Shown here piece by piece: positions 1-16,413 of a stretch of DNA of 64,000 nt. This DNA is from Corallococcus caeni (lineage in GTDB: Bacteria; Myxococcota; Myxococcia; Myxococcales; Myxococcaceae), in assembly GCF_036245885.1 (NCBI RefSeq), contig NZ_BTTX01000008.1. The stretch is one strand, 5' to 3'. The notes beneath the pieces are model-generated. The model saw only the letters and a list, made by a program, of their open reading frames with translations, was not told the origin of the DNA and did not search any database. Numbering within the stretch: position 1 is the stretch's first letter; each line of letters starts with the position of its first letter. The translations under genes and the position numbers were made by a program.

Positions 1-1515
1 CGGCTCCAGCCGGTGGGTCAGGTGTGGAACCGCTTCCCCCGGCTCGTGCGCGAGCTGGCGCACGGGTGCGGCAAGCAGGTGCGGCTGCAGCTCCACGGCG
101 CGGACACGGAGCTGGACAAGACGCTGGTGGAGGCGCTGCATGATCCGCTCACCCACCTGTTGCGCAACGCCGTGGACCACGGCGTGGAGACGCCCGAGCA
201 GCGGCGCGAAGCGGGCAAGCCGCCCGTGGGATGCCTGACGCTGAGCGCGTCGCACGAGGGCGGGCTCGTGCACCTGGGCATGTCCGACGACGGCGCGGGC
301 ATCGACGTGCAGCGCGTGCGGCAGGTCGCGGTGCAGCGCGGCCTGCTCACGGCCGACCAGGCGGCGCGGATGCCGGACGCGGACGCGCTGATGCTCATCT
401 TCATGCCGGGCTTCAGCACCGCGGAGCGCGTCACGTCGCTGTCCGGCCGGGGCGTGGGCATGGACGTGGTGCGCACGCAGGTGGAGCGCATCGGCGGCAC
501 CGTGGAGGTGCACAGCCGGCCCGGTCAGGGCACGACGTTCACCCTGAAGATTCCCCTCACGCTGGCCATCATCCCGGCGCTGCTCGTGACGTGCCGGGGT
601 GACCGCTACGCGCTGCCGCAGGCCTCCCTGCGGGAGGTGGTGTGGCTGGAGCCGGCGCAGGCCCGCAGGGACATCAGCCGCATCCAGGGCGCCTGCGTGC
701 TCCGGCTGCGCGGAGAGCTGCTGCCGCTGGTGGTGCTGGCCTCCGAGCTGGGCGTGGGGCCCGCGACGCCGGAGCTGGACGAGGGCGCCACCATCGTCGT
801 GTTGCAGGCCGGGGAGCGCGCCTTCGGGCTGTGGGTGGACGCCATCCACGACACGGAGGAGATCGTCGTCAAGCCGCTGTGGAAGCACCTGAAGGGGCTG
901 GCCTGCTACGCTGGCGCGACGGTGCTGGGCGACGGGCGCGTGGCGCTCATCCTGGACGCCATGGGGCTGGGCCGCCGCGTGGGCACCGTCGCGGAGGCGC
1001 AGGCCCAGGTCGTCGTCCCCGAGGCCGCTCCGGAAACGCCCCGCCCCGAGGACGCGCGCGAGCGGGTGCTGCTGTGCCGCACCGGCGCGGAGGGCCGCGT
1101 GGCCATCCCGCTGTCCCGCGTGGCGCGGCTGGAGGAGCTGCCCGCGTCGGACGTGGAGCGGCTGAGCGGGGGCATGGAGATGGCGCGCTATCACGGCCAG
1201 CTGCTGCCGCTGGTGCGCGTGGCCTCCGTCCTGGAGGCGAGGCCCGGCGCGACGGAGCGGCTCACGCAGGGCCTCCAGGTCGCCTTCGGCGAGTCGCTGT
1301 CCGTCGTCGTCGCCACGCACTCGGACACGCGCGTGGGGCTGGTGGTGGACGCCATCCTCGACGTCGCGGAGGTGGAGCTTTCGCTCCAGCGTGAGACGCG
1401 CCGCCCGGGCGTGCTGGGCTCCATGGTGGTGCAGAGCCGGGCCACCGAGTTCCTGGACGTGGAGGGCACCGTGCGCGCCGTGCACCCGGAGCTGCTGACG
1501 GGCGGTGCGCCGTGA
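1..1515 (+). CDS. cheA: Chemotaxis histidine kinase CheA, C-terminal part (5' end outside window): HATPase_c domain followed by CheW-like domain(s)
   Basis: Translation contains the CheA ATP-binding motifs ([15 protein letters not shown]; GRGVGMDVV...[17 protein letters not shown]) then CheW-like segments. The frame is open from window position 1. The stop overlaps the next start (ATGA). Confidence 0.85.
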
Positions 1516-2000
1516 GCGCCTTCCGCCAGCTGTGCTCGTTCCAGGTGGGGGACCACCTGTTCGGCCTGGACATCGAACGCGTGCAGGAGATCTTGCTGCC
1601 ACCCCCGCTCACGCGCGTGCCCGGTGCGCCTCCGGAGGTCGCGGGGTTGCTCAACCTGCGCGGGCAGATCGTCCCCGCCATCGACCTGCGCCGCCGCCTG
1701 GACCTGCCCGACGGCGCCGCCCCCACGGACGCGCCCCACGTCGTCCTGCGCGGCGACGAAGGCGCGGTGAGCCTCCGCGTGGATGCCATTGGCGACATCC
1801 TCCCCTTCGAGCAGTCGGACCTGGCGCCGCTGCCGGACAACCTGCGCGGACCCCTGCGTTCGATGCTCCTGGGTGTCCATGCGCTGCCGGACCGGCTGCT
1901 GCTCGTGTTGTCCGCGGACGCGGTGGTGGACGGGCTCGCGCCCGCATCCAGCGCGTCCGCCTCCCCTTCCTTCCCCGTGCTTCCCCAGGAGTCCCGCTGA
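1512..2000 (+). CDS. cheW: CheW-like coupling protein
   Basis: 162 aa with CheW-type sequence ([47 protein letters not shown]). Start overlaps the cheA stop and its own stop overlaps the next start, both as ATGA. Confidence 0.85.
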
Positions 2001-4051
2001 TGGCCCGCCCTACCGCGCCCGCCGTGAAAGCCACCCTCTTCCAGCGCCTGGGCGGCAAGGCCCCCCTGACGGCCGCCGTGCAGAAGCTCTACGCGCGGGT
2101 GATGACGGACGCGCTGCTCAAGCCCTTCTTCCGCCGCGCGGACCTGGTCCAGTTGCAGCGCCAGATGGTCGCGTTCCTCACCCAGCACCTGGGCGGCCCG
2201 GCCGTCTATCGCGGCCCGTCGATGCGCGAGGTGCACGCGCGCATGGCGCTGAAGCCCCACCACTTCGAGCGCGTCGCCGAACACCTGGCCACCGTGCTGG
2301 ATGAGCTGGACGTGCCGGGCCCCGTCGCCCGCGAGCTGCTGGCGGCGGTGGGGACGCCGCAAGAGGACAGCGTCAGCAGGCCCGCGTCGAAGCGCGCCCC
2401 GGCGCGTGCCTCCCGCACGGAGGGACGCAGGGTCGCCGTGGCGTCCGTGCCCGCGGCCCGCTCCTCCCGCCGCCGCGCGGCCACGCCGCTCGAGGGCGCC
2501 TTCAACGAGACGCTGCTCAACGCGGCGCGGGTCAACCTGTTCGTCCTGGACGCGGACCTGGGCATCGTCTTCATCAACGCGGCCGCCACGGAGGCCCTCG
2601 CGCGCATCAGCGACGGCGCGGAGGACCGCGACTTCCTCGCCCACTTCGAGCATCAGCTGCGGCTGGAGGAGGACCGGCTGGGCACGCCGTCCGCGCTGCC
2701 GTACGAGACCACCTTCGCGGCGGGCCCCACCCTGCTCAAGGTCCACGTCGACGGCATCGAGGGCCGGGGCGGAGCGCTCACCGGCTACGTGGTGACGTGG
2801 ACGGACATCACGGATCAGCAGCGCGTGGACACGGAGATGGCGCGGCTGAGGGCCATGCTGGAGAACGCGCCCACCTGCGTGATGGCGGCCGACAAGGACC
2901 TGAAGATCGTCTACCTGAACCCCGCCTCGCGCCGGCTGTTGCAGCGGGTGGAGAAGCACCTGCCCGTCAGCGCGGACCGGGTGCTGGGGTCCACCATCGA
3001 CGTCTTCCACCGCGACTCGGCGTACCAGCGGAAGATCCTGTCCAACGACAAGAACCTGCCGGTGCGCGCGAACATCCCCATCGGGCCGGAGGTCGCGGAC
3101 CTGCTGGTGACCGCGGTGTACGACGGCCAGGGCCGCTACCTGGGCCCCATGGTGACGTGGGAGCTCATCACGGAGAAGCTCGCGGTGCAGAAGCGGGAGC
3201 AGGACCTGGACAGCACGCTGCGCGGTATCTTCCAGGAGGTGACGCAGCACTCGCAGACGCTCGCGGCGTCGTCGCAGGAGCTGTCCAGCGTCAGCCAGCA
3301 GATGGTGAGCAACGCGCAGGAGACCGCGGCGCAGGCCACCCAGGTGTCCGCCGGCGCTGAACAGGTCAGCCGCAACGTGCAGAGCGTCGCGTCCGGCATG
3401 GAGGAGGTCAACGCGAACATCCGCGAGGTGGCGCGCAACGCGAGCACCGCCGCCAAGGTGGCGTCGTCCGCCGTCAAGCTGGCGGACACCACGTCCATCC
3501 TCGTCGGCAAGCTGGGGACCAGCAGCCAGGACATCGGCAAGGTCATCAAGGTCATCACCTCCATCGCTCAGCAGACCAACCTGCTCGCGCTCAACGCGAC
3601 CATCGAGGCGGCGCGCGCGGGCGAGGCGGGCCGGGGCTTCGCGGTGGTGGCCAACGAGGTGAAGGAGCTGGCGCGCGAGACGGCCCGCGCCACCGAGGAC
3701 ATCGGCCAGCGGATCGGCAGCATCCAGGGCGACACCGAGGAGGTGGTCAACGCCATCCTGGAGATCGGCGCCACCATCGGCCGCATCAACGAATTGCAGA
3801 CGTCCATCGCCTCGTCGGTGGAGGAGCAGACGGCGACCGCGGGGGAGATCCTGCGCAACGTGGGCGAGGCCGCCAAGGGCAGCCAGCAGATCTCCGAGAA
3901 CATGGCCGCCGTGGCGGAGGCCGCGCGCAGCACCACCGAGGGCGCGGGCAGCACGCAGCGCTCGGCGGTGGAGCTGGCCCACATGGCGCAGTCGCTGCAA
4001 CGGCTGGTCGTGCAGGTGGACACCACGGACAAGCAGGCGCGGGCGAAGTAG
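2000..4051 (+). CDS. Methyl-accepting chemotaxis protein with N-terminal truncated-hemoglobin (group I trHb) domain and PAS-like middle region
   Basis: N-terminus matches the trHb pattern (FQRLGG...[48 protein letters not shown]). C-terminus has the MCP signalling domain ([32 protein letters not shown]). ATG at 2000 overlaps the cheW stop. Only this internal ATG was checked against the longer six-frame ORF starting at 1505. Confidence 0.8.
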
Positions 4052-4085
4052 CGCGGGCCGCTGCAAGCCCTGGGAGCCACGGCAC

Positions 4086-5615
4086 GTGCGGATCGGATTG
4101 AAGCGGTGGTGGGAGCTGGGCCAGGTGGCCCGCGCCTCCACGCGCCTGCGGCGGGTGTCCCGTCCCCAGGACGAGGAGCGCGTGCGGCGCGAGCTGACCC
4201 AGCGGCTCCTGGGACTGCGGGGACTGCCCCAGAAGGTGGGCCAGGTGCTCACGCTCGCGGAGCTGGGCGCGGAGACGCCGGGGTTCGGTTCGCTCGCGGA
4301 GGCGCCCTCCCCGCTCGCGCCGGAGGACGCGCTGGCGGAGGTGTCCCGACGACTGGGCCGCCCCTGGCAGGAGGTGTTCACGTCGCTGGAGGGCGTGGGC
4401 CTCGCCGCGTCGCTGGGGCAGGTGCACCGGGGCGTGCTGCGCGACGGGCGCGCCGTGGCGGTGAAGCTGCGGCACCCGGGCATCGCGGAGGCCGTGCGGG
4501 ATGATCTGCGCGCGTTGGGCTGGCTGGCCGCGCCGCTGGGGGGCTGGCGCGGGAAGCTGGACATGTCCGCCTACCGCCATGAGCTGGCCCGGATGCTCCA
4601 GGGCGAGCTGGACTACCACCACGAGGCCCAGGCCCTGCGGGACGCGGGCGCGCGCATGGCGGACGTGCCGGGCGTCGTCGTCCCCGTGCCGGTGGACGCG
4701 CTCACCCGTGAAGACCTGCTGGTGATGAGCTGGGTGGAGGGCGCCTCGCTCGCGGACGGCTGGCGCTGGAGCGAAGCGGACCGCCGGGCGCTGTCCACCA
4801 CGCTGATCCGGCTGTTCCTCCACGGCTGCTTCATCTGGGGCGCGCTCCACGCGGATCCGCACCCGGGCAACTACCGCGTGTCCCGGGGGCCGGACGGCAA
4901 GCCCGTGCTGGGGGTGCTCGACTTCGGCTGCGTGAAGCCGCTGCCGCCGGAGCTGGCCGTGGGACTGGGGCGGTTGATCTCCCTCCTCCGGGCTCCGAAC
5001 GCCACGCCGCACCCGGAGCAGCTGCTGTCCGCGTGGGTGATGCTGGGCTTCACGCCGGAGCTGCTGGAGCCCATGACGGAAGCGCTGCCCGCCGTGAGCC
5101 GCGTGCTGCTGGAGCCCTTCCTCCGGGAGGGTCCCTTCCACGCGAGGAGCTGGCGGCTGGGAGCGCGGCTCACCGAGGCGCTGGGGCCGCACCGCTGGAA
5201 CTTCCGCGCGGCCGGGCCCGCGTCGCTGCTGTTCGTCCTGCGTGCGTTCCACGGGCTGGTGCGCCACCTGGACGTGCTGGATACGCCCATCGCCTGGGGG
5301 CCGCTGCTGGACGAGGCCCGTGCGCCATCGCTGCCCCCGCCGCCGTCGCCGCCCGAGACGTGGGTCGAAGGCACCGCGCGCTACCTGAAGGTCCGCGTGA
5401 CGGAAGCGGGGCACACGCGCGTCGCGCTGACCTTCCGCGCGGACGTGACGGCGCACCTGGAAGACCTGTTGCCGGAGGACCTGCCGCGCAAGCTCGCGGC
5501 GCGGGGCCTGGATCCGGTCGCCATCGGCGCGGCGGCAGTCGCGGCGGGGCTGCGGCCGGCGGAGCTGTTCCACCTGGACGAGGGCGACCGCCACGTCCGG
5601 GTCTGGCTCGAATGA
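4086..5615 (+). CDS. ABC1/UbiB (ADCK) family atypical protein kinase
   Basis: Motifs LGQVHRGVLRDGRAVAVKLRHPG and HADPHPGNYRV are typical of the ABC1/aarF kinase family. Lies between mcp and cheB. Confidence 0.7.
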   Translation: MRIGLKRWWELGQVARASTRLRRVSRPQDEERVRRELTQRLLGLRGLPQKVGQVLTLAELGAETPGFGSLAEAPSPLAPEDALAEVSRRLGRPWQEVFTSLEGVGLAASLGQVHRGVLRDGRAVAVKLRHPGIAEAVRDDLRALGWLAAPLGGWRGKLDMSAYRHELARMLQGELDYHHEAQALRDAGARMADVPGVVVPVPVDALTREDLLVMSWVEGASLADGWRWSEADRRALSTTLIRLFLHGCFIWGALHADPHPGNYRVSRGPDGKPVLGVLDFGCVKPLPPELAVGLGRLISLLRAPNATPHPEQLLSAWVMLGFTPELLEPMTEALPAVSRVLLEPFLREGPFHARSWRLGARLTEALGPHRWNFRAAGPASLLFVLRAFHGLVRHLDVLDTPIAWGPLLDEARAPSLPPPPSPPETWVEGTARYLKVRVTEAGHTRVALTFRADVTAHLEDLLPEDLPRKLAARGLDPVAIGAAAVAAGLRPAELFHLDEGDRHVRVWLE

Positions 5616-5637
5616 AAGACAGACAAGGAGGTGACGG

Positions 5638-5973
5638 ATGGTCACCATCGGCATGAACTACGAGGTGCGTGAGGGCAAGGCGGAGGCCTTCGAGCGGAAG
5701 TTCGCGCTCGTCCTGGAGGCGATGCGGACGCTGCCGGCGCACGCGCACACGGAGCTGTTCAAGAGCGTGGGGGCGCCGGGGCGCTACCTCATCGTCTCCG
5801 AGTGGCACAGCCGCGAGGGCTTCGACGCCTTCGTCGCGTCCGAGGCCTTCCACCGCGTGACGGACTGGGGCGCGAGCGCCATCCTCGCGAGCCGGCCGCG
5901 CCACGAGGTGTATGGCGATGCGGCCTCCAGCGCCCCCGCGGGCCGCTGCCCGGTCGCGCACGCGGTCCGGTGA
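5638..5973 (+). CDS. ABM (antibiotic biosynthesis monooxygenase) domain protein
   Basis: 111 aa with the ferredoxin-like ABM signature (VTIGMNYEVREGKAEAFE...YLIVSEWHSREGFDAFVASEAF). Upstream GGAGG Shine-Dalgarno. Confidence 0.65.
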   Translation: MVTIGMNYEVREGKAEAFERKFALVLEAMRTLPAHAHTELFKSVGAPGRYLIVSEWHSREGFDAFVASEAFHRVTDWGASAILASRPRHEVYGDAASSAPAGRCPVAHAVR

Positions 5974-5984
5974 CGCGAGTGCGA

Positions 5985-7049
5985 ATGAACCCCATCCGGG
6001 TCCTGGTGGTGGACGACGCGGCCGTGGTGCGGCGGCAGGTGTCGCTGCTGCTGGACGCGGATCCAGGCCTGGAGGTCGTCGCCACCGCGCCCAACGGCCG
6101 CATCGCGCTGGCGAAGGTGGAGCAGTTCCAGCCGGACGTGGTGCTGCTGGACCTGGAGATGCCGGAGCTGGACGGGCTGGAGACGCTGAAGCTCCTGCGC
6201 CAGCGCGCCCCGGACCTGCCCGTGGTGATGTTCAGCGCGCTCACCGAACGCGCCGGCATGCTGACCCTGGAGGCGCTCGCGCTGGGAGCCCGCGACTACG
6301 TGACGAAGCCCACCTCCGCGGGCGGAATGAACATCACGGTGGAGGCCGTGCGGGACGAGTTGGTGCGCAAGCTCAAGGCGCTCAACCTTCGCCCCTCTTC
6401 CGCCACGATGTTGCCGTTCCCCGTGACGCGCGCACCCCAGCCCCGGCCGCTGGTGCCCGCGCGGGTGGAGGCCATCGTCATCGGCGCGTCCACGGGAGGC
6501 CCGGGTGCGCTGGTGCGCGTGGTGTCCGCGCTGCCAGCGGACCTCCCGGTGCCGGTGCTCGTCGTGCAGCACATGCCGCCCCTCTTCACGCGGCTGCTCG
6601 CGGAGCGGTTGCAGGGCGTGAGCCCGCTCCGCGTGCGCGAGGCCGTGACGGGTGCGTCCGTGCACGCCGGCCAGGTGTGGGTGGCCCCCGGGGACTTCCA
6701 CCTGGCCGTGTGCCGGGACGCGACGGGCGTGCGGCTGCTCACGCACCAGGGGCCGGCGGAGAACGCGTGCCGTCCGGCGGTGGACCTGCTCTTCCGCTCG
6801 GCGGCGGAGGTGTACGGCGCGGGGGTGCTGGCGGTGGTGCTCACCGGCATGGGCCAGGACGGGCTGCGCGGCTGCCGCAAGGTGAGCGAGGCGGGCGGTC
6901 AGGTGGTGGTGCAGGACCAGGCCAGCTGCGTCATCGGCAGCATGCCGGGCGCGGTGGAGCAGGCAGGGCTCGCGGATGCGGTGGTGCCCCTGGACGCCCT
7001 GGCCCTGGAGCTGGTGCGGCGCGTGGATCCACGCGGACGGAGGACCTGA
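5985..7049 (+). CDS. cheB: Chemotaxis response regulator protein-glutamate methylesterase CheB
   Basis: REC domain (RVLVVDDAAVVRRQ...DVVLLDLEMPELDG) plus methylesterase domain (GASTGGPGAL...VVQHMPPLFT...GMGQDG). The start is an internal ATG of a longer ORF. Confidence 0.85.
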   Translation: MNPIRVLVVDDAAVVRRQVSLLLDADPGLEVVATAPNGRIALAKVEQFQPDVVLLDLEMPELDGLETLKLLRQRAPDLPVVMFSALTERAGMLTLEALALGARDYVTKPTSAGGMNITVEAVRDELVRKLKALNLRPSSATMLPFPVTRAPQPRPLVPARVEAIVIGASTGGPGALVRVVSALPADLPVPVLVVQHMPPLFTRLLAERLQGVSPLRVREAVTGASVHAGQVWVAPGDFHLAVCRDATGVRLLTHQGPAENACRPAVDLLFRSAAEVYGAGVLAVVLTGMGQDGLRGCRKVSEAGGQVVVQDQASCVIGSMPGAVEQAGLADAVVPLDALALELVRRVDPRGRRT

Positions 7050-7051
7050 GC

Positions 7052-7945
7052 ATGTCCCTGCTTGCCGACGACTTCGCGTACCTGCGGCAGCGCGTGCTGC
7101 GCCGCTCCGGGCTCGTGCTGGAGCCCGACATGCACGCGCTGGTGGAGACGCGGCTCATGTCGCTCCTGCGCGAGGAGCGGCTGCCGGACATCTCCGCCCT
7201 GGTCGCGCGGCTGCGCTCACAGCCGGAGAGCAGCCCGCTCCACCAGCGGCTGGCGGAGGCGCTGGCCAACCACGAGACGGCCTTCTTCCGCGACGCGCCC
7301 GTGTTCGACGCCCTGCGCTCCACGGTCCTGCCCGCCCTGCTGGCGAAGCGCTCCCGCACGCGCACGCTGCGCATCTGGTGCGCGGCGTGCGCCTACGGCC
7401 AGGAGCCCTACAGCATCGCGATGACGCTGGCGGAGGCCGGGCTGCTGATCACCGGCTGGACGGTGCGCATCCTCGCCACCGACTTCTCCGCGCGCGCGCT
7501 CGTGCGCGCCAGCGAGGCCCGCTACGACGCGCAGGAGATCCACCGGGGCCTGACGCCGGAGCTGCGCCAGCGCTACTTCCGCCCGGAGCGCGACGGGTGG
7601 CGGCTGAACGAACAGGTGCGCAGGCCGGTGGAGCTGCGGCCGCTCAACCTGATGGACGACTTCCCACCGGAGGCGCCGGTGGACCTCGTCTTCCTTCGCA
7701 ACGTGATGATCTACTGGGACGTGCCCACCCGGCGCGCGGTGCTCGCCCGCGTGCGGCGGATGCTCCACGCGGATGGCTACCTGGTGCTGGGCGCCGCGGA
7801 GGCCTCGCCCCTGGTGGAGGACGGCTTCACGCGGCACCTGATTGGTCAGACCAGCTGGTACCGCCCCACGCCCGCGCCCCACGCCAGCGCGAGCGCGCCG
7901 GTGGAGGACGCGCCGCGCCCGCCCCGCTCCGGCGCTAGACCTTGA
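7052..7945 (+). CDS. cheR: Chemotaxis protein methyltransferase CheR
   Basis: CheR N- and C-terminal domains (ETAFFRDAPVFDALRSTVLP...RIWCAACAYGQEPYSIAM...VFLRNVMIYWD). ATG 2 nt after the cheB stop. Confidence 0.85.
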   Translation: MSLLADDFAYLRQRVLRRSGLVLEPDMHALVETRLMSLLREERLPDISALVARLRSQPESSPLHQRLAEALANHETAFFRDAPVFDALRSTVLPALLAKRSRTRTLRIWCAACAYGQEPYSIAMTLAEAGLLITGWTVRILATDFSARALVRASEARYDAQEIHRGLTPELRQRYFRPERDGWRLNEQVRRPVELRPLNLMDDFPPEAPVDLVFLRNVMIYWDVPTRRAVLARVRRMLHADGYLVLGAAEASPLVEDGFTRHLIGQTSWYRPTPAPHASASAPVEDAPRPPRSGARP

Positions 7946-8855
7946 GGCGGATGGCGCCGGGCAATATCGTCATGGTGCAGGGCAGCCGGCCCGGCGTCTC
8001 GCCGTCCACGTCCAGGAACACGTCGCCGTCCTCCGACTCCGCGTGGATGGTGCGGCAGCGCAGCCGCCGCGTGCCCTTCCAGGTGACGTGGTCGCCGTTG
8101 TAGACGCCCTTGGACTTGAGGACGAAGTCGGACAGGCCGTAGTTGGACCAGATGGTGACGTCGAAGAGGCCGTCGTGCGTCACCGCGTCGGGCGCGACGA
8201 ACATGCCGCTGCCGAAGTAGCGCCCGTTGGCCACGGCCACCGCGGTGACGCTCACCGTCTCCGGGGGGCCGCCATCCACCGTGAGGCGCACCTGCCGCTC
8301 CTGGTACTTCAGGAGGCCCTTCACGGTGCCCCACATGAAGCTCAGGTTGCCGCCCAGCGCCTTGCTGCCCTGGTTCACCTCGCGGGCCACCACCGCGCTC
8401 ACGCCGAACGAGGCGATGTTGGCGAAGAAGCGCGTGGCCGGGTTGCCGTCGTTGTCGATGAACTCCAGCCGCCCCACGTCGAAGGGCTCCGTCTTCTCCG
8501 TGCGCAGCCGCTCCAGCGCGGACGTCAGCTCCAGGTCCCACCCGAAGGTGCGGCGGAAGTCGCCGCCGGTGCCCCGGGGCAGCAGGGCCAGCGTGGCCTG
8601 CGGGTTGATGACCTGCCCGTCGCGGAAGAAGCCGTTGGTGACCTCGTTGAGGGTGCCGTCGCCGCCCACCGCGACGATGCACTCATAGCCGTCGTCGATG
8701 GCCTGCCGCGCCAGACGCGCCGCATCCATGCCGCCGCTGGTGAAGCCGTGCCCGAACTCACCGAGCACCTTGCCCACCAGCGCGGAGATCTCCACCCAGC
8801 GCTTCCCCGTCTGCCCGTTGGCGCTGCGCGGGTTGACCACGAGGAACGTCTTCAT
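7935..8855 (-). CDS. Diacylglycerol/lipid kinase catalytic-domain protein (YegS/DAGK_cat family)
   Basis: MKTFLVVNPRSANGQTG...IVAVGGDGTLNEVTNGF is the DAGK_cat signature. Convergent with cheR, with an 11-nt overlap. Confidence 0.75.
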   Translation of the reverse strand: MKTFLVVNPRSANGQTGKRWVEISALVGKVLGEFGHGFTSGGMDAARLARQAIDDGYECIVAVGGDGTLNEVTNGFFRDGQVINPQATLALLPRGTGGDFRRTFGWDLELTSALERLRTEKTEPFDVGRLEFIDNDGNPATRFFANIASFGVSAVVAREVNQGSKALGGNLSFMWGTVKGLLKYQERQVRLTVDGGPPETVSVTAVAVANGRYFGSGMFVAPDAVTHDGLFDVTIWSNYGLSDFVLKSKGVYNGDHVTWKGTRRLRCRTIHAESEDGDVFLDVDGETPGRLPCTMTILPGAIRLKV

Positions 8856-8916
8856 TCAGTGCCTTCTCCCTGCGAGAACGGCTTGTTTACGCAATTGTGC
8901 GCCCAGGCTCCACTCC

Positions 8917-9687
8917 ATGACCCACAGGAGGGCCCCGAGGCCCGGGGTGTTTGTCACCCGGACTGCTTCGTGCTGGGCTTCCCGCCCCCCGCTTCACCCC
9001 GGACCCCGAGTGAAAGCCCCCGCCTCCACCGAGCAGCTCGCTCCCCACCGGGAGGCCACGCGCGCCCTGGACTGGGCGCTGCCCGCGCTCCGGGCGGACC
9101 TGGCGGCGGCGGCGAGGCAGCCCTTCCGGGAGACGGGCGCCCAGGAGGACTTCCTCCTCCGCCATGACGCACCAGCCCATGAACCCCAGGGGCCGGCGCG
9201 GACGGAGCGCTTCGAGCGGGCCCTGGGCCGGGTGCGGCGGCTCGCGGACGCGGGCGAGCCGCTGACCTTCCCCCGGATGGTGGAGGTCCAGTCGGAGCTG
9301 CTGGGCGGGCCCACGGGCTTCCGCACCGGGGACGCCTTCGCGTGGGGCGGTGCGCACCGCTACGCGCACGTGCCCGGCCTGGAGGCGGCCTTCCGCGAGA
9401 AGGTGGAGGCGGACGCGCGGGAGGAACGCCATCCGGTGGCGCATGCCACGCGGTTGTACCTGGACCTGTGCTTCTTCCACCCCTTCCCGGACGGCAACGC
9501 CCGCGCGGCGCGGCTGTGGTTGGAATACATGCTGCGCCGGGGCCGGCTGCCCACGCCGCCGCTGGCGCCCGTGGTGCTGTGGCCCAAGCATCCGGGGGAC
9601 GCGGTGAACTACACGCGGCTGGCAAGGCTGCTGGCCCGGAGCATCGCGGGGCCGGACGCCCCGTGCCGCAACGAGGTGCCCGAATGA
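8917..9687 (+). CDS. Fic-domain protein with non-canonical core motif HPFPDGNARAAR
   Basis: Fic core helix YLDLCFFHPFPDGNARAARLWLEY. Candidate starts are the in-frame ATG at 8917 and a GTG at 9010. The stop overlaps the next start (ATGA). Confidence 0.7.
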   Translation: MTHRRAPRPGVFVTRTASCWASRPPLHPGPRVKAPASTEQLAPHREATRALDWALPALRADLAAAARQPFRETGAQEDFLLRHDAPAHEPQGPARTERFERALGRVRRLADAGEPLTFPRMVEVQSELLGGPTGFRTGDAFAWGGAHRYAHVPGLEAAFREKVEADAREERHPVAHATRLYLDLCFFHPFPDGNARAARLWLEYMLRRGRLPTPPLAPVVLWPKHPGDAVNYTRLARLLARSIAGPDAPCRNEVPE

Positions 9688-10349
9688 GCAGCAACGCTTC
9701 GGCTTTCACGTGGCGCCGCATCCGCGACAGCCTGGATGCCTATGCGCCGCAATCCCTGGCGGCTCGGCTGCGGGAGGCCCTGGCCCCCTTGCGGTCCGGC
9801 AGCATCCATCAGGCCCGGCTCAAGCAGGCGAAGAACGCCGTGAAGGACCTGCTCCAGGCCGAACTGGGGCCCTGGTACATCGAGAGCGGACTGCCCCTGG
9901 GCAACGAAGTGCTGGGGGGATATTGCTGGTGTCACTCGTTCTTCAACCAGAACCCGCCGCATCGGACGATGGACGTGGATGCGAACATCCAGCTCATGCT
10001 GGAGGCGCTGGAGCGGATCCGTTCGTTCCTGTACGCGCTGGACGGCGTGTACCAGACCGCGCGCCGTCAGCTCGAGCTGGCGGCTGACGACCAGGCGCTC
10101 CGGGAGAAGGCGCTCGCGGAAGGGCTGGTGCGGACCGTGGAGTTGACGGCGGAGACGACGTCCTGTGAGGAGACCTGGTACCAGGTCGCGCAGGACGCCA
10201 TGTCGTGGTGCATCGAGGCGATGGGGCTGCCCCTGTCGGACGCCACGCAGGAGCAGCTGGACACCGCCTTCGTCTTCGAGTCGTGGATCGCGCCCGCCCC
10301 GGAAGCCCTCCGGACCGCGGCGGCGCGGGTGGCGGAGGTGGCCGTATGA
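9684..10349 (+). CDS. Hypothetical protein, paralog A of an unrecognised family (conserved GGYCWCH / CEE motifs)
   Basis: 221 aa with high third-position GC. Start overlaps the Fic stop and its stop overlaps paralog B's start, both as ATGA. About 45% identical to the downstream ORF. Confidence 0.6.
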   Translation: MSSNASAFTWRRIRDSLDAYAPQSLAARLREALAPLRSGSIHQARLKQAKNAVKDLLQAELGPWYIESGLPLGNEVLGGYCWCHSFFNQNPPHRTMDVDANIQLMLEALERIRSFLYALDGVYQTARRQLELAADDQALREKALAEGLVRTVELTAETTSCEETWYQVAQDAMSWCIEAMGLPLSDATQEQLDTAFVFESWIAPAPEALRTAAARVAEVAV

Positions 10350-11041
10350 GCAGGTCGGCCCTGGGCCATTGGCTGCGCATCCGCGACAGCCTGGATGGGT
10401 ATGAGCCGGAGAAGCTCATCCGCCTGCTGCGTGAATACCTGGCACCGCGCGTGCCCCCGGGGACGCGCAAGCTCACGGACGAGCAGCACGACACGATGGC
10501 CAAACACATCCAGCGGCTGCTCCACCAGAACCTGGGGCCCTGGTACACGGAGACGGGCCTGTATCTGGGCAATGAGAGCTTCGGCGGCTACTGCTGGTGT
10601 CACCGCTTCTTCAGGCAGAAGCCCACGCCAAACATGGACGTGGAATACAACATCCAGCTCATGCTCGACGCGCTGGAGCGGTCGCGCCAATGGCTGTTCA
10701 AGCTGGACGCCCACTTCGAGGCGCTGAAGCGGGACCTGCCTTCGGGTCCGGACGACCACGACATCCGGACGCTCGCGCTGTCGGAGGGAATCGTCACCAC
10801 GATGAACCTCACCATGGAGGCCACGGGCTGTGAGGAGGCCTGGTCCACCTTCGCGGACGAGGCGCTGGCGTGGATGTTCGACGCCATCGGCCTGCGGCCG
10901 GGCTATCAGGCCGGCAAGCTGATGCGAAAGCTGTTCGCCTTCGAGTCCTGGCACTCACCCTCCGAGGAGGAGCTGCGCGGCTCGGCGGAGAAGGTGGCGG
11001 CGGCCGTCGTGGAGGACGAGGGCCACCGACACAAGCACTGA
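10346..11041 (+). CDS. Hypothetical protein, paralog B of the same unrecognised family
   Basis: 231 aa. Shares the core LGPWYxExGLxLGNExxGGYCWCHxFFxQxPxxxMDVxxNIQLMLxALERxR with paralog A. Start overlaps A's stop (ATGA). Confidence 0.6.
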   Translation: MSRSALGHWLRIRDSLDGYEPEKLIRLLREYLAPRVPPGTRKLTDEQHDTMAKHIQRLLHQNLGPWYTETGLYLGNESFGGYCWCHRFFRQKPTPNMDVEYNIQLMLDALERSRQWLFKLDAHFEALKRDLPSGPDDHDIRTLALSEGIVTTMNLTMEATGCEEAWSTFADEALAWMFDAIGLRPGYQAGKLMRKLFAFESWHSPSEEELRGSAEKVAAAVVEDEGHRHKH

Positions 11042-15294: not shown

Positions 15295-16413
15295 ATGACA
15301 CCGCCCACCGACCCGTATCAGGCCGTCACCCACCCCGACCCCTACCCGTACTACGCGGAGCTTCGCGCCCAGGGCGGACTGCACCGCATCCCCGGGTTCG
15401 CGCCATGGATCGCGGCGGACGGGGCGACCGTGCGCGCCGTGCTCACGAGCGAGCACTGCCGGGTCCGTCCGAAGTCGGAGCCAGTGCCTCCGCAGCTGGT
15501 GGGCAGCGCCGCGGGGGCCCTCTTCGGACGGCTGGTGCGCATGAACGACGGAGGCCCCTACCCCGCCGTGAAGCAGACCCTGTCGCGCGCGCTGCCGGAG
15601 GCGCTGCGGGAGGTGGAGACGGAGAGTCGGCGCCAGGCGGAACGGCTGTTCTCGGAGCCCTCCCTGTCACGGCTGCCGGACGCGGCGCTCCAGCTCCCCG
15701 TGTTCGTGCTGGCGTCGCTGCTGGGCTTCCCGGAGGACACGCTGGAGGAGACCGTGCGGGACGTGGAGGCCTATGTCCGCTCGGTCGCCGGGCCCACGGT
15801 GAGCAGCGAGGGCGCCGCGAGGCTGAACGAGCGCGTGGCGGCCTGTTTCCAGGCCACACCGAGGACCGCGTTCACGGCCCGGCTCATGTCGGGCCCTGGC
15901 GCGGAGGAGCTGCGCGTCCCCAACGCGGTGGGCCTGCTCACCCAGGCGTATGAAGCGACGGCCGGGCTCCTGGGGGCGACGCTGCGGGCCATCGCTCGCG
16001 AGCCCGCGCTGCGGGAACAGCTCTCCCGGGGCGAGTGCACACTCGACGACGTGGTCCAGGAGGCGATCCGCCACGAGTCGCCGGTCCAGAACACGCGGCG
16101 CTTCACCCATGCGGCGGCGACCGTCGCAGGGCAGGAGCTGGAAGCCGGGGCGACCGTGGTCATCGTGCTCGCCGCCGCGAACCGGGATCCGCTGGAGAAT
16201 CCGCGGCCCGACGCCTTCCTGCCCCGGCGCGTGGGTCGTCAGACCTTCACCTTCGGCCTGGGCGCGCATGCCTGTCCGGGGCCGCTGCTGGCGACGGCGA
16301 TGGCCACGGCGGCGGCGGAGCGCGTGCTCGCGACCGGACTGGACCTGTCACCGCTGTCGGGCGCCGTCACCTGGCGTGCTTCCACCAACACCCGCGTCCT
16401 GGGAGGACTGTGA
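15295..16413 (+). CDS. Cytochrome P450
   Basis: Heme-binding loop FGLGAHACPG and an ExxR-like region. 372 aa. The stop overlaps the next start (TGATG). Confidence 0.75.
   Translation: MTPPTDPYQAVTHPDPYPYYAELRAQGGLHRIPGFAPWIAADGATVRAVLTSEHCRVRPKSEPVPPQLVGSAAGALFGRLVRMNDGGPYPAVKQTLSRALPEALREVETESRRQAERLFSEPSLSRLPDAALQLPVFVLASLLGFPEDTLEETVRDVEAYVRSVAGPTVSSEGAARLNERVAACFQATPRTAFTARLMSGPGAEELRVPNAVGLLTQAYEATAGLLGATLRAIAREPALREQLSRGECTLDDVVQEAIRHESPVQNTRRFTHAAATVAGQELEAGATVVIVLAAANRDPLENPRPDAFLPRRVGRQTFTFGLGAHACPGPLLATAMATAAAERVLATGLDLSPLSGAVTWRASTNTRVLGGL

Follow-up and report, generated by a model that had tools for sequence, protein, structure and literature searches.

A Corallococcus chemosensory operon encoding an Aer2-like receptor with an added truncated hemoglobin and a UbiB-family accessory protein

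Organization of the operon

The stretch analyzed here, referred to as the window, comprises 64,000 nucleotides of Corallococcus caeni (RefSeq assembly GCF_036245885.1, contig NZ_BTTX01000008.1). Window positions 1–7945 carry seven co-oriented genes on the + strand, assigned by Pfam as cheA (partial), cheW, mcp, ABC1, ABM, cheB and finally cheR, in which mcp encodes a methyl-accepting chemotaxis protein (MCP). With a probability of roughly 0.6, these genes form a single operon whose products make up a chemosensory pathway that is cytoplasmic and senses gas through heme. The receptor is Aer2-like with an added truncated hemoglobin (trHb), as distinct from a canonical 36H/F7 Aer2 system, and probably carries two hemes, whereas the ABC1 protein is an optional but dedicated accessory that is not essential to the core pathway. 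Coordinates below are those of the window, and lengths are in amino acids (aa).

13–1515, + strand: cheA, 3' part; HATPase_c and two CheW-like stretches (Pfam); the gene begins outside the window
1512–2000, + strand: cheW; 162 aa; Pfam CheW E=2e-29
2000–4051, + strand: mcp, soluble chemoreceptor; 683 aa; group I truncated hemoglobin (trHbN), basic linker, PAS1, PAS2 and MCP signalling domain
4086–5615, + strand: ABC1; 509 aa; Pfam ABC1 E=6e-46; soluble UbiB/ABC1-family atypical kinase/ATPase of a che-associated subfamily
5638–5973, + strand: ABM; 111 aa; Pfam ABM E=4e-15; C-terminal tail RCPVAH
5985–7049, + strand: cheB; 354 aa; receiver and methylesterase (Pfam)
7052–7945, + strand: cheR; 297 aa (Pfam)

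The GC content at third codon positions is 0.91–0.98 in the chosen frames, and the Pfam scores far exceed the curated cut-offs. The genes are tightly packed: the cheA stop and cheW start overlap by 4 nt (GTGA) and cheW and mcp by 1 nt (TGATG), and the remaining spacings are 34 nt (mcp-ABC1), 22 nt (ABC1-ABM, with AAGGAGG inside), 11 nt (ABM-cheB) and 2 nt (cheB-cheR). Simple scans inside the operon find neither a promoter-like site nor a terminator-like site on the + strand. A first-pass annotation made from the letters of the window had placed a kinase gene and an ABM gene inside a compact che operon; every gene that it named is present, and the interval it marked, 2000–5973, runs exactly from mcp through ABM. 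The cheA orthologue in the complete genome of C. exercitus (locus L001; L numbers designate comparison loci) is full-length; its 722-aa product comprises the domains Hpt, H-kinase_dim, HATPase_c and CheW. The L001 cluster has no CheY gene, and by Pfam neither CheD nor CheY is encoded in the Corallococcus cluster, either in the window or in C. exercitus.

A soluble receptor with a globin and two Aer2-type PAS domains

The receptor encoded by mcp divides into five parts, all on the + strand.

2033–2374, + strand: group I truncated hemoglobin domain; receptor aa 12–125; matches PDB 3aq5, 4xdi and 1idr (E of about 1e-17 to 1e-19)
2375–2494, + strand: Arg/Ser/Ala-rich linker; aa 126–165
2495–2830, + strand: PAS1; aa 166–277; Aer2-like; Glu217 at the heme-His position; Trp267 kept
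2831–3184, + strand: PAS2; aa 278–395; Aer2-type heme PAS; H337 (PaAer2 H234) and W387 (PaAer2 W283)
3185–4048, + strand: MCP signalling domain; Pfam MCPsignal E=2e-32; tip EAARAGE with E542

Pfam locates Bac_globin at aa 12–109 (E=6e-19), PAS at aa 181–272 and 281–386, and MCPsignal at aa 480–641. The closest solved relative of the globin is Tetrahymena trHbN (3aq5, E=4e-19), aligned without gaps over aa 11–123, followed by Chlamydomonas THB1, Synechocystis GlbN and Mycobacterium tuberculosis HbN. The trHbN structures match at E=4e-19 to 1e-14, whereas the group II (HbO) match is ten or more orders of magnitude weaker (E~1e-5) and that to flavohemoglobin is not significant (E=0.68). His79 and Tyr31 align to Tetrahymena H73 and Y25. 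Among MCP-linked globins the proximal His at F8 (His79) is kept in 76/76, the Tyr at B10 (Tyr31) in 74/74, the Gly-Gly pairs of the AB and EF hinges (aa 18–19 and 65–66) in 75/75 and 73/74, respectively, and the Leu at E7 (Leu52), which is also the E7 residue of HbN, in 64/74. Position E11 is Met56 in the window receptor; among 74 MCP-linked globins it is Gln in 45 and Met in 19.

PAS2 matches the PAS-heme structures of Pseudomonas aeruginosa and Vibrio cholerae Aer2 (PDB 3vol, 4hi4 and 6ceq) at E of about 2–4e-14. His337 aligns, within a common DVFH motif, to the heme-coordinating Eeta-His (PaAer2 H234), and both W387 of PAS2 and W267 of PAS1 align to the O2-stabilizing Ibeta-Trp (PaAer2 W283). 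These two residues count among the features that define Aer2 PAS-heme domains (PMC10107281). In the PAS domains of the 120 best receptor homologues the heme His is present in 279/297 and the Trp in 297/297. Of 225 PAS domains, 206 have His and 19 have Glu in the heme-His column of PAS1, and because Glu217 replaces His in the window receptor, PAS1 is probably heme-free. Taken with the globin residues, the PAS2 residues indicate that the receptor probably carries one heme on trHbN and one on PAS2. In NCBIfam the whole receptor matches 'aerotaxis transducer Aer2' best (E=3e-55), with a score of 188 bits that stays below the cut-off of 1200 bits.

The C-terminal half of the protein has the features of a methyl-accepting chemotaxis protein: an MCPsignal domain, a conserved hairpin tip (EAARAGE, aa 536–542), Glu/Gln sites resembling methylation sites (SSQEL at aa 424 and SVEEQTAT at aa 606–613), and CheW, CheA, CheB and CheR partners in the same operon. 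The arms on either side of E542 are ∼149 and ∼141 aa, or roughly 40 heptads as estimated by length only. A hydropathy scan of the receptor indicates no transmembrane (TM) segment, and a Pfam scan finds no HAMP domain. The linker between globin and PAS1 (aa 126–165) was considered as a target of the ABC1 kinase and dropped; it is not present in a distant homologue from an Acidobacteriia metagenome-assembled genome (MAG; L002), in which the globin and PAS matches abut.

These results bear on three statements of the first-pass annotation. Its assignment of the receptor N-terminus to the group I truncated hemoglobins holds, with H79, Y31 and both Gly-Gly motifs in place and the proximal His retained, as does its distinction from HemAT-type sensor globins, since only Bac_globin (PF01152) is matched and the PDB matches are to truncated hemoglobins. 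The "PAS-like region" was correctly placed ahead of the MCP signalling domain, but the description missed that it consists of two Aer2-type PAS domains, the second with H337 and W387. The architecture is indeed uncommon in cultured genomes; it is frequent in metagenomes: 76 of the receptor's 120 best homologues, the majority of metagenomic origin, carry the globin, at the N-terminus in 74 of these 76.

The globin need not itself be a sensor. It could act as an enzyme or buffer, a NO dioxygenase or O2 scavenger in the manner of M. tuberculosis HbN, protecting or tuning a PAS-heme that is the true sensor. The HbN-like distal pocket (Tyr B10, Leu E7) is compatible with this, PAS2 alone holds everything needed for an Aer2 sensor, and close relatives do without the globin, namely 44 of the 120 top homologues and the Hyalangium receptor described below (L143). 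The trHbN can moreover be separate from the receptor or fused to CheA, so receptor helices need not mediate its action: an Opitutaceae MAG (L006, 7490–9993, + strand) encodes a free 129-aa trHbN and a hemA-like open reading frame (ORF) between cheW and ABC1, and in L139 (1674–5909, + strand) a CheA-receiver hybrid kinase carries a fused group I trHb at its N-terminus, and its cluster includes a multi-PAS MCP and an ABC1 subfamily gene as well. The glutamyl-tRNA-reductase-like (hemA-like) call in L006 was made by eye from the motif LSTCNRTEFY and is a candidate only. On the other hand, the nearly constant N-terminal position of the globin in the receptors that have it, and its direct abutment on the first PAS domain in L002, fit intramolecular signalling, and the operon encodes no reductase partner for a dioxygenase cycle. 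The enzyme or buffer role is regarded as unlikely, although it is the best placed of the alternatives to the proposed pathway.

A UbiB-family protein with a private C-terminal domain

All motifs of the ABC1 family are intact in the ABC1 protein: KxGQ, AAS(L/I)GQVH (the Ala-rich loop), VAVK, HADPHPGN and DFG. Across 23 members there is little or no variation at residues K50/G52/Q53 of KxGQ, A108/S109, K127, H255/D257/N262 and D279/G281. A profile of ABC1 relatives matches COQ8B in the PDB at E=7e-55, and the AlphaFold (AF2) model, with a predicted local distance difference test score (pLDDT) of 82.8, superposes on COQ8A, Rv3197 and MSMEG_1954; Foldseek comparison with COQ8A and Rv3197 yields E of about 1e-15. 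The protein nevertheless scores below the UbiB equivalog cut-offs (TIGR01982, 117 vs 488 bits; PRK04750, 82 vs 667 bits) and also far under the MABP-1 equivalog cut-off of NCBIfam. No TM segment is indicated by a hydropathy scan, which peaks at 1.38 over a 19-residue window. Full-length relatives at 40–49% identity form a subfamily of roughly 510 aa. The ABC1 protein thus has the fold and motifs of the UbiB family but is not UbiB proper.

5382–5612, + strand: ABC1 C-terminal domain; aa 433–509; two strands, three helices, two strands; ends VRVWLE

The ∼80-aa C-terminal domain is modelled at a pLDDT of 92.5 and belongs to this subfamily alone; of the loci in the genome scan, just three, L005–L007, all of them from the subfamily, matched through residue 509. 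A profile search with the domain, covering 1.84 billion proteins, returned 730 representative clusters. Among the best 150 proteins listed, the domain is always either C-terminal, in ABC1 proteins of ∼510 aa or shorter entries that include truncated fragments, or a stand-alone protein of 81 aa that begins with Met. One stand-alone copy (P0346) was found on a 2-kb contig. In L150 and L151 a stand-alone copy lies between the gene for a 1186-aa trHb-PAS-MCP and cheY, in the order cheA-cheW-mcp-[81 aa]-cheY-cheR, and occupies the exact slot that ABC1 has in Corallococcus. Because the domain alone can fill the same operon slot, its most likely role, to judge from gene position only, is to dock the ABC1 protein onto the receptor or array, bringing the UbiB module with it when fused.

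Association of the ABC1 subfamily with che genes

Two scans define the association. A scan of metagenomes for the private C-terminal region yielded 55 ABC1-subfamily loci, 30 of them with at least 4 kb of flanking sequence; profiles built from the Che proteins of the window were then used to look for che genes within 6 kb. A scan of genome contigs with the full ABC1 alignment was dominated by generic UbiB; three of the 80 loci kept belong to the subfamily, and the other 77 serve as the negative control. Core che genes lie within 6 kb of 26/30 well-flanked subfamily loci (35/55 overall) and of 0/77 generic UbiB loci. In about half of the ABC1 loci, the gene immediately next to ABC1 on the same strand encodes an MCP, a receiver/CheB or an ABM protein. 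The association spans phyla. The Acidobacteriia MAG encodes, directly in succession, a trHb-PAS-MCP 45% identical to the window receptor, ABC1 and cheB, and the subfamily is likewise linked to che genes in the Opitutaceae locus and in L147. Furthermore, a 952-kb MAG contig (L140) carries trHb-PAS-MCP, ABC1, ABM (61% identical), cheY, cheB and cheR, which is the Corallococcus order with cheY added; the whole mcp-ABC1-ABM-cheB-cheR module therefore occurs en bloc in an unrelated MAG, and the order in L140 points to loss of cheY in Corallococcus. When neighbouring ORFs were clustered all-vs-all, no further partner stood out clearly, the analysis being confounded by antisense ORFs of homologous high-GC genes.

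The ABM protein and heme-related genes

The ABM protein matches Pfam PF03992 at 56 bits against a cut-off of 23.1. ABM genes adjoin the ABC1 subfamily gene in six loci (L090, L095, L122, L126, L127 and L140), and ABM is accordingly a sporadic companion of the subfamily. The protein is weakly similar to the heme-binding or heme-degrading ABM proteins MhuD, HmoB, HmuQ and PRK09565. The catalytic W66 of MhuD aligns to Phe65, which is invariant across the ABM family, and H75 of MhuD to a position that is not conserved. Asn7 of ABM is invariant and, in the HMMER alignment, one residue out of register with N7 of MhuD; the family keeps Asn7, His35 and His89. A C-terminal Cys-Pro-x-x-His tail (RCPVAH in the window, aa 103–108, 5944–5961) is present in 53/84 ABM homologues, among them proteins encoded at a distance from che genes. 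This tail resembles a heme-regulatory motif, a resemblance that serves as a lead only, and ABM is most plausibly heme-linked through it.

Heme-related genes accompany several of the other clusters. In addition to the cases described above, an extra single-domain Bac_globin gene and a DUF420 gene lie upstream of the related cluster in L002, a heme-oxygenase-like neighbour (HamA_HO-like) lies downstream in L003 and L004 (Acidobacteriia MAG), and L147 contains a PF00042 globin (15707–16138) along with PilZ and CheX genes.

The first-pass annotation had seen in the pairing of ABC1 and ABM a hint of a lipid or quinone link. The corresponding model, also put forward in the 2018 paper PMC6194562, in which ABC1 acts as UbiB/COQ8 in ubiquinone biosynthesis and ABM oxidizes quinols, so that taxis is coupled to the quinone pool or to aerobic respiration, is the main rival to the gas-sensing pathway. 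ABC1 has the fold and motifs of a family that is linked to coenzyme Q, and ABM proteins can oxidize phenolic or quinol substrates, as that paper argues. Several observations weaken this model. The score of 117 bits against the 488-bit UbiB equivalog cut-off, the lack of a TM segment on the hydropathy scan, and the C-terminal domain that generic UbiB proteins are missing set ABC1 apart from UbiB; generic UbiB genes are not found near che genes (0/77), whereas the ABC1 subfamily is dedicated to them; the C-terminal domain can occupy the operon slot without the kinase; and the clusters examined contain no further ubiquinone biosynthesis genes. With respect to ABM, which occurs only sporadically, the Cys-Pro-x-x-His tail of the family suggests a heme link instead. 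The quinone hint thus finds no backing in these data, and the model built on it is considered improbable, somewhat more so than an enzymatic role for the globin.

Neighbouring genes

Downstream of the operon, a lipid-kinase-like gene with DAGK_cat and YegS_C domains (7935–8855, − strand) converges on cheR, with an 11-nt overlap of the 3' ends; a like arrangement is found in C. exercitus. An ORF at 8698–9687 (+ strand) contains a Fic-type motif, HPFPDGNARAAR, at aa 261. The L001 orthologue is annotated as a Fic protein of 225 aa, and the true start of the window ORF is therefore probably internal. It is followed by tandem paralogues at 9684–10349 and 10346–11041 (+ strand), which encode proteins of 221 and 231 aa that are 45% identical (E=1e-65) and which share 4 nt; the orthologues of the pair in L001 have no recorded Pfam family. 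Upstream of cheA, two Corallococcus species carry, at a distance of 177 nt, the gene for a 307-aa PAS and GerE/LuxR-type regulator (L001, 6248–7171; L005, 4088–5071). No such gene was found beside the related clusters from other phyla, and its product could be a lineage-specific regulator or output partner.

Relation to described systems

The operon has been described before. It is the Corallococcus orthologue of the "Cc-5" (earlier "ECSS4") cluster, a "putative aerotaxis" system of C. coralloides DSM 2259 reported from in silico analysis by Sharma, Parales & Singer (BMC Genomics 2018; PMC6194562), and it lies outside the M. xanthus-type systems. The window holds the orthologous locus of a sister species, with the same receptor architecture (Bac_globin, PAS and MCPsignal) and no CheY nearby. 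In that study Cc-5 was present in 1/34 myxobacterial genomes, related clusters had no ABC1 or ABM, and later acquisition of both was proposed; Aer2 and truncated hemoglobins are not mentioned in the paper (PMC6194562). The present data differ from that account in two respects. The system is not confined to one genome: its receptor matches a C. caeni protein at 100% identity and proteins of numerous other Corallococcus species at 81–99% identity, and ABC1 and ABM are distributed likewise. Moreover, ABC1 is linked to che genes across phyla, and the occurrence of the module en bloc in L140 contradicts late acquisition, so that the scenario in which Corallococcus gained ABC1 and ABM after the core che cluster appears to be wrong. 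What is added beyond the 2018 description is the receptor's Aer2-like character with its probable two hemes, the che-dedicated UbiB subfamily with its private domain, and the conservation of the module en bloc.

Hyalangium rubrum (L143) has a related cluster, cheY-cheA-cheW-PAS-MCP-cheY-cheB-cheR, without ABC1 or ABM, whose receptor is 62% identical and has no globin. Among myxobacteria, PAS-containing MCPs therefore occur outside Corallococcus as well, in disagreement with the survey of 2018.

The late-acquisition scenario implies that ABC1 and ABM might be passengers that entered a che cluster of horizontal origin and play no part in signalling, and although related clusters without either gene (L143, L144 and L145) and the ABM homologues elsewhere in genomes would fit such an origin, it is very improbable given that the association spans phyla in consistent position and orientation, that the order mcp-ABC1-ABM-(cheY)-cheB-cheR recurs identically in the unrelated MAG L140, and that members of the ABC1 subfamily rarely occur apart from che genes.

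Among characterized receptors, the nearest is Aer2 (McpB) of the Che2/Che3 (F7) systems of Pseudomonas and Vibrio, which is likewise soluble, contains between one and three PAS domains of this subtype, and is encoded in a cluster with CheB and CheR. Heme coordination by the Eeta-His and stabilization of O2 by the Ibeta-Trp are shared features, both residues being kept in PAS2. Unlike Aer2, the window receptor shows no HAMP domain in the Pfam scan, its cluster has no CheD and, in Corallococcus, no CheY, and it is distinguished by the extra N-terminal trHb and the ABC1 and ABM accessories. Aer2/McpB also ends in a pentapeptide tether, and no such tether is seen in the window receptor, whose C-terminus reads ...DKQARAK. 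HemAT and other globin-coupled sensors similarly join a heme globin to an MCP domain in a soluble protein with presumed O2 sensing, but theirs is a full-length 3-on-3 sensor globin (Protoglobin), whereas that of the window belongs to the 2-on-2 truncated hemoglobins of group I. The bacterial chimeric T globins listed in a 2020 review of globins (PMC7475203) all fall in groups II and III. The free group I trHbs (HbN, trHbN, THB1 and GlbN) have in common with the window globin an ungapped alignment of ∼113 residues, Tyr B10, His F8 and the Gly-Gly hinges; the window globin differs in being a chemoreceptor domain and in having Met at E11, where most MCP-linked relatives have Gln.

Similarly, the window ABC1 protein shares the fold and all family motifs with UbiB, COQ8 (ADCK3) and Rv3197 (MABP-1), and differs from these in giving no sign of a TM segment by hydropathy, in its private 80-aa C-terminal domain, and in its chemosensory rather than quinone-biosynthesis context. 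Genetic coupling of ABM to a trHb has a precedent in Streptomyces avermitilis, which has a chimera of the two (Bonamore et al. 2007, cited in PMC7475203). In the window the ABM is a separate gene and not a fusion. The globin of the Streptomyces chimera reportedly belongs to group II. With IsdG, MhuD and HmuQ the window ABM shares weak similarity, but its family does not conserve the catalytic Trp and His of MhuD and has the Cys-Pro-x-x-His tail.

Proposed mechanism

The proposed pathway would begin with a soluble, Aer2-family PAS-heme receptor to which a group I trHb is fused N-terminally, and which would probably bind two b-type hemes. The first would sit on trHbN, with His79 proximal and Tyr31 distal; the second on PAS2, held by His337, with Trp387 stabilizing bound O2, PAS1 having lost its heme His. 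By analogy with the respective families, binding of O2, NO or CO would alter the conformation of the receptor and so set the activity of CheA through CheW, and CheR and CheB would adapt the receptor at its Glu/Gln sites. The ABC1 protein, predicted to be a soluble UbiB-family ATPase/kinase with intact catalytic motifs, would be a dedicated but optional accessory whose UbiB domain may add an ATP-dependent input or an input from a small hydrophobic ligand. ABM would be a second, sporadic accessory, heme-linked through its tail. Because the CheY of the cluster has been lost, the output in Corallococcus may run through an orphan response regulator or may not be motility at all.

A number of observations weigh against this interpretation. 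The cluster does not conform to a canonical Aer2/F7 Che2 system, which would have HAMP-flanked PAS domains, a 36H signalling domain, and CheD and CheY; the characterized Aer2 receptors are 36H receptors in F7-class clusters, whereas the arms of the window receptor come to ∼40 heptads by length. Heme binding is read from conserved residues, and the Met at E11 in the Corallococcus clade, against Gln in most relatives and HbN, may mean that ligand stabilization differs. With respect to ABC1, four of the 30 well-flanked loci have no che gene nearby, three of six distant trHb-PAS-MCP clusters sampled (L144, L145 and L146) do without ABC1 while the other three have it, and it is also absent from the globin-less Hyalangium cluster. 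The docking role of the C-terminal domain is argued from gene position alone, and the domain finds no match among the families of Pfam and NCBIfam or, by structure, in the PDB. As for ABM, homologues at 57–63% identity are also found far from che genes, and a function as an IsdG/MhuD-type heme degrader was rejected, the Trp and His of the triad not being conserved. Finally, a July 2026 review of aerotaxis cites the Cc-5-type system as an in silico prediction only.

Implications

The C-terminal domain, alone or fused to UbiB, may represent an unrecognized class of auxiliary chemosensory protein comparable to CheV, CheD and CheX and specific to pathways with Aer2-type PAS-heme receptors, often with a trHb, in Acidobacteriota, Verrucomicrobiota, Nitrospirota, Gemmatimonadota, Myxococcota and other phyla; the arguments for and against such a class are evenly balanced. 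A description of the operon by itself would add little, as it repeats the in silico account of 2018. If the gas-sensing pathway proposed here is correct, the pairing of two heme sensors, trHbN and an Aer2-type PAS domain, would provide a natural system for the integration of gas-binding sites of different affinity or selectivity. The function of UbiB, COQ8 and ADCK proteins is a long-standing question, for which a soluble member encoded in a che operon is an unusually tractable handle, as it offers candidate partners together with assays in the form of CheA activity and receptor methylation. Should the auxiliary class prove real, the ABC1 protein would, to our knowledge, be the first protein of the UbiB family for which partner proteins are defined and a signalling output can be measured.

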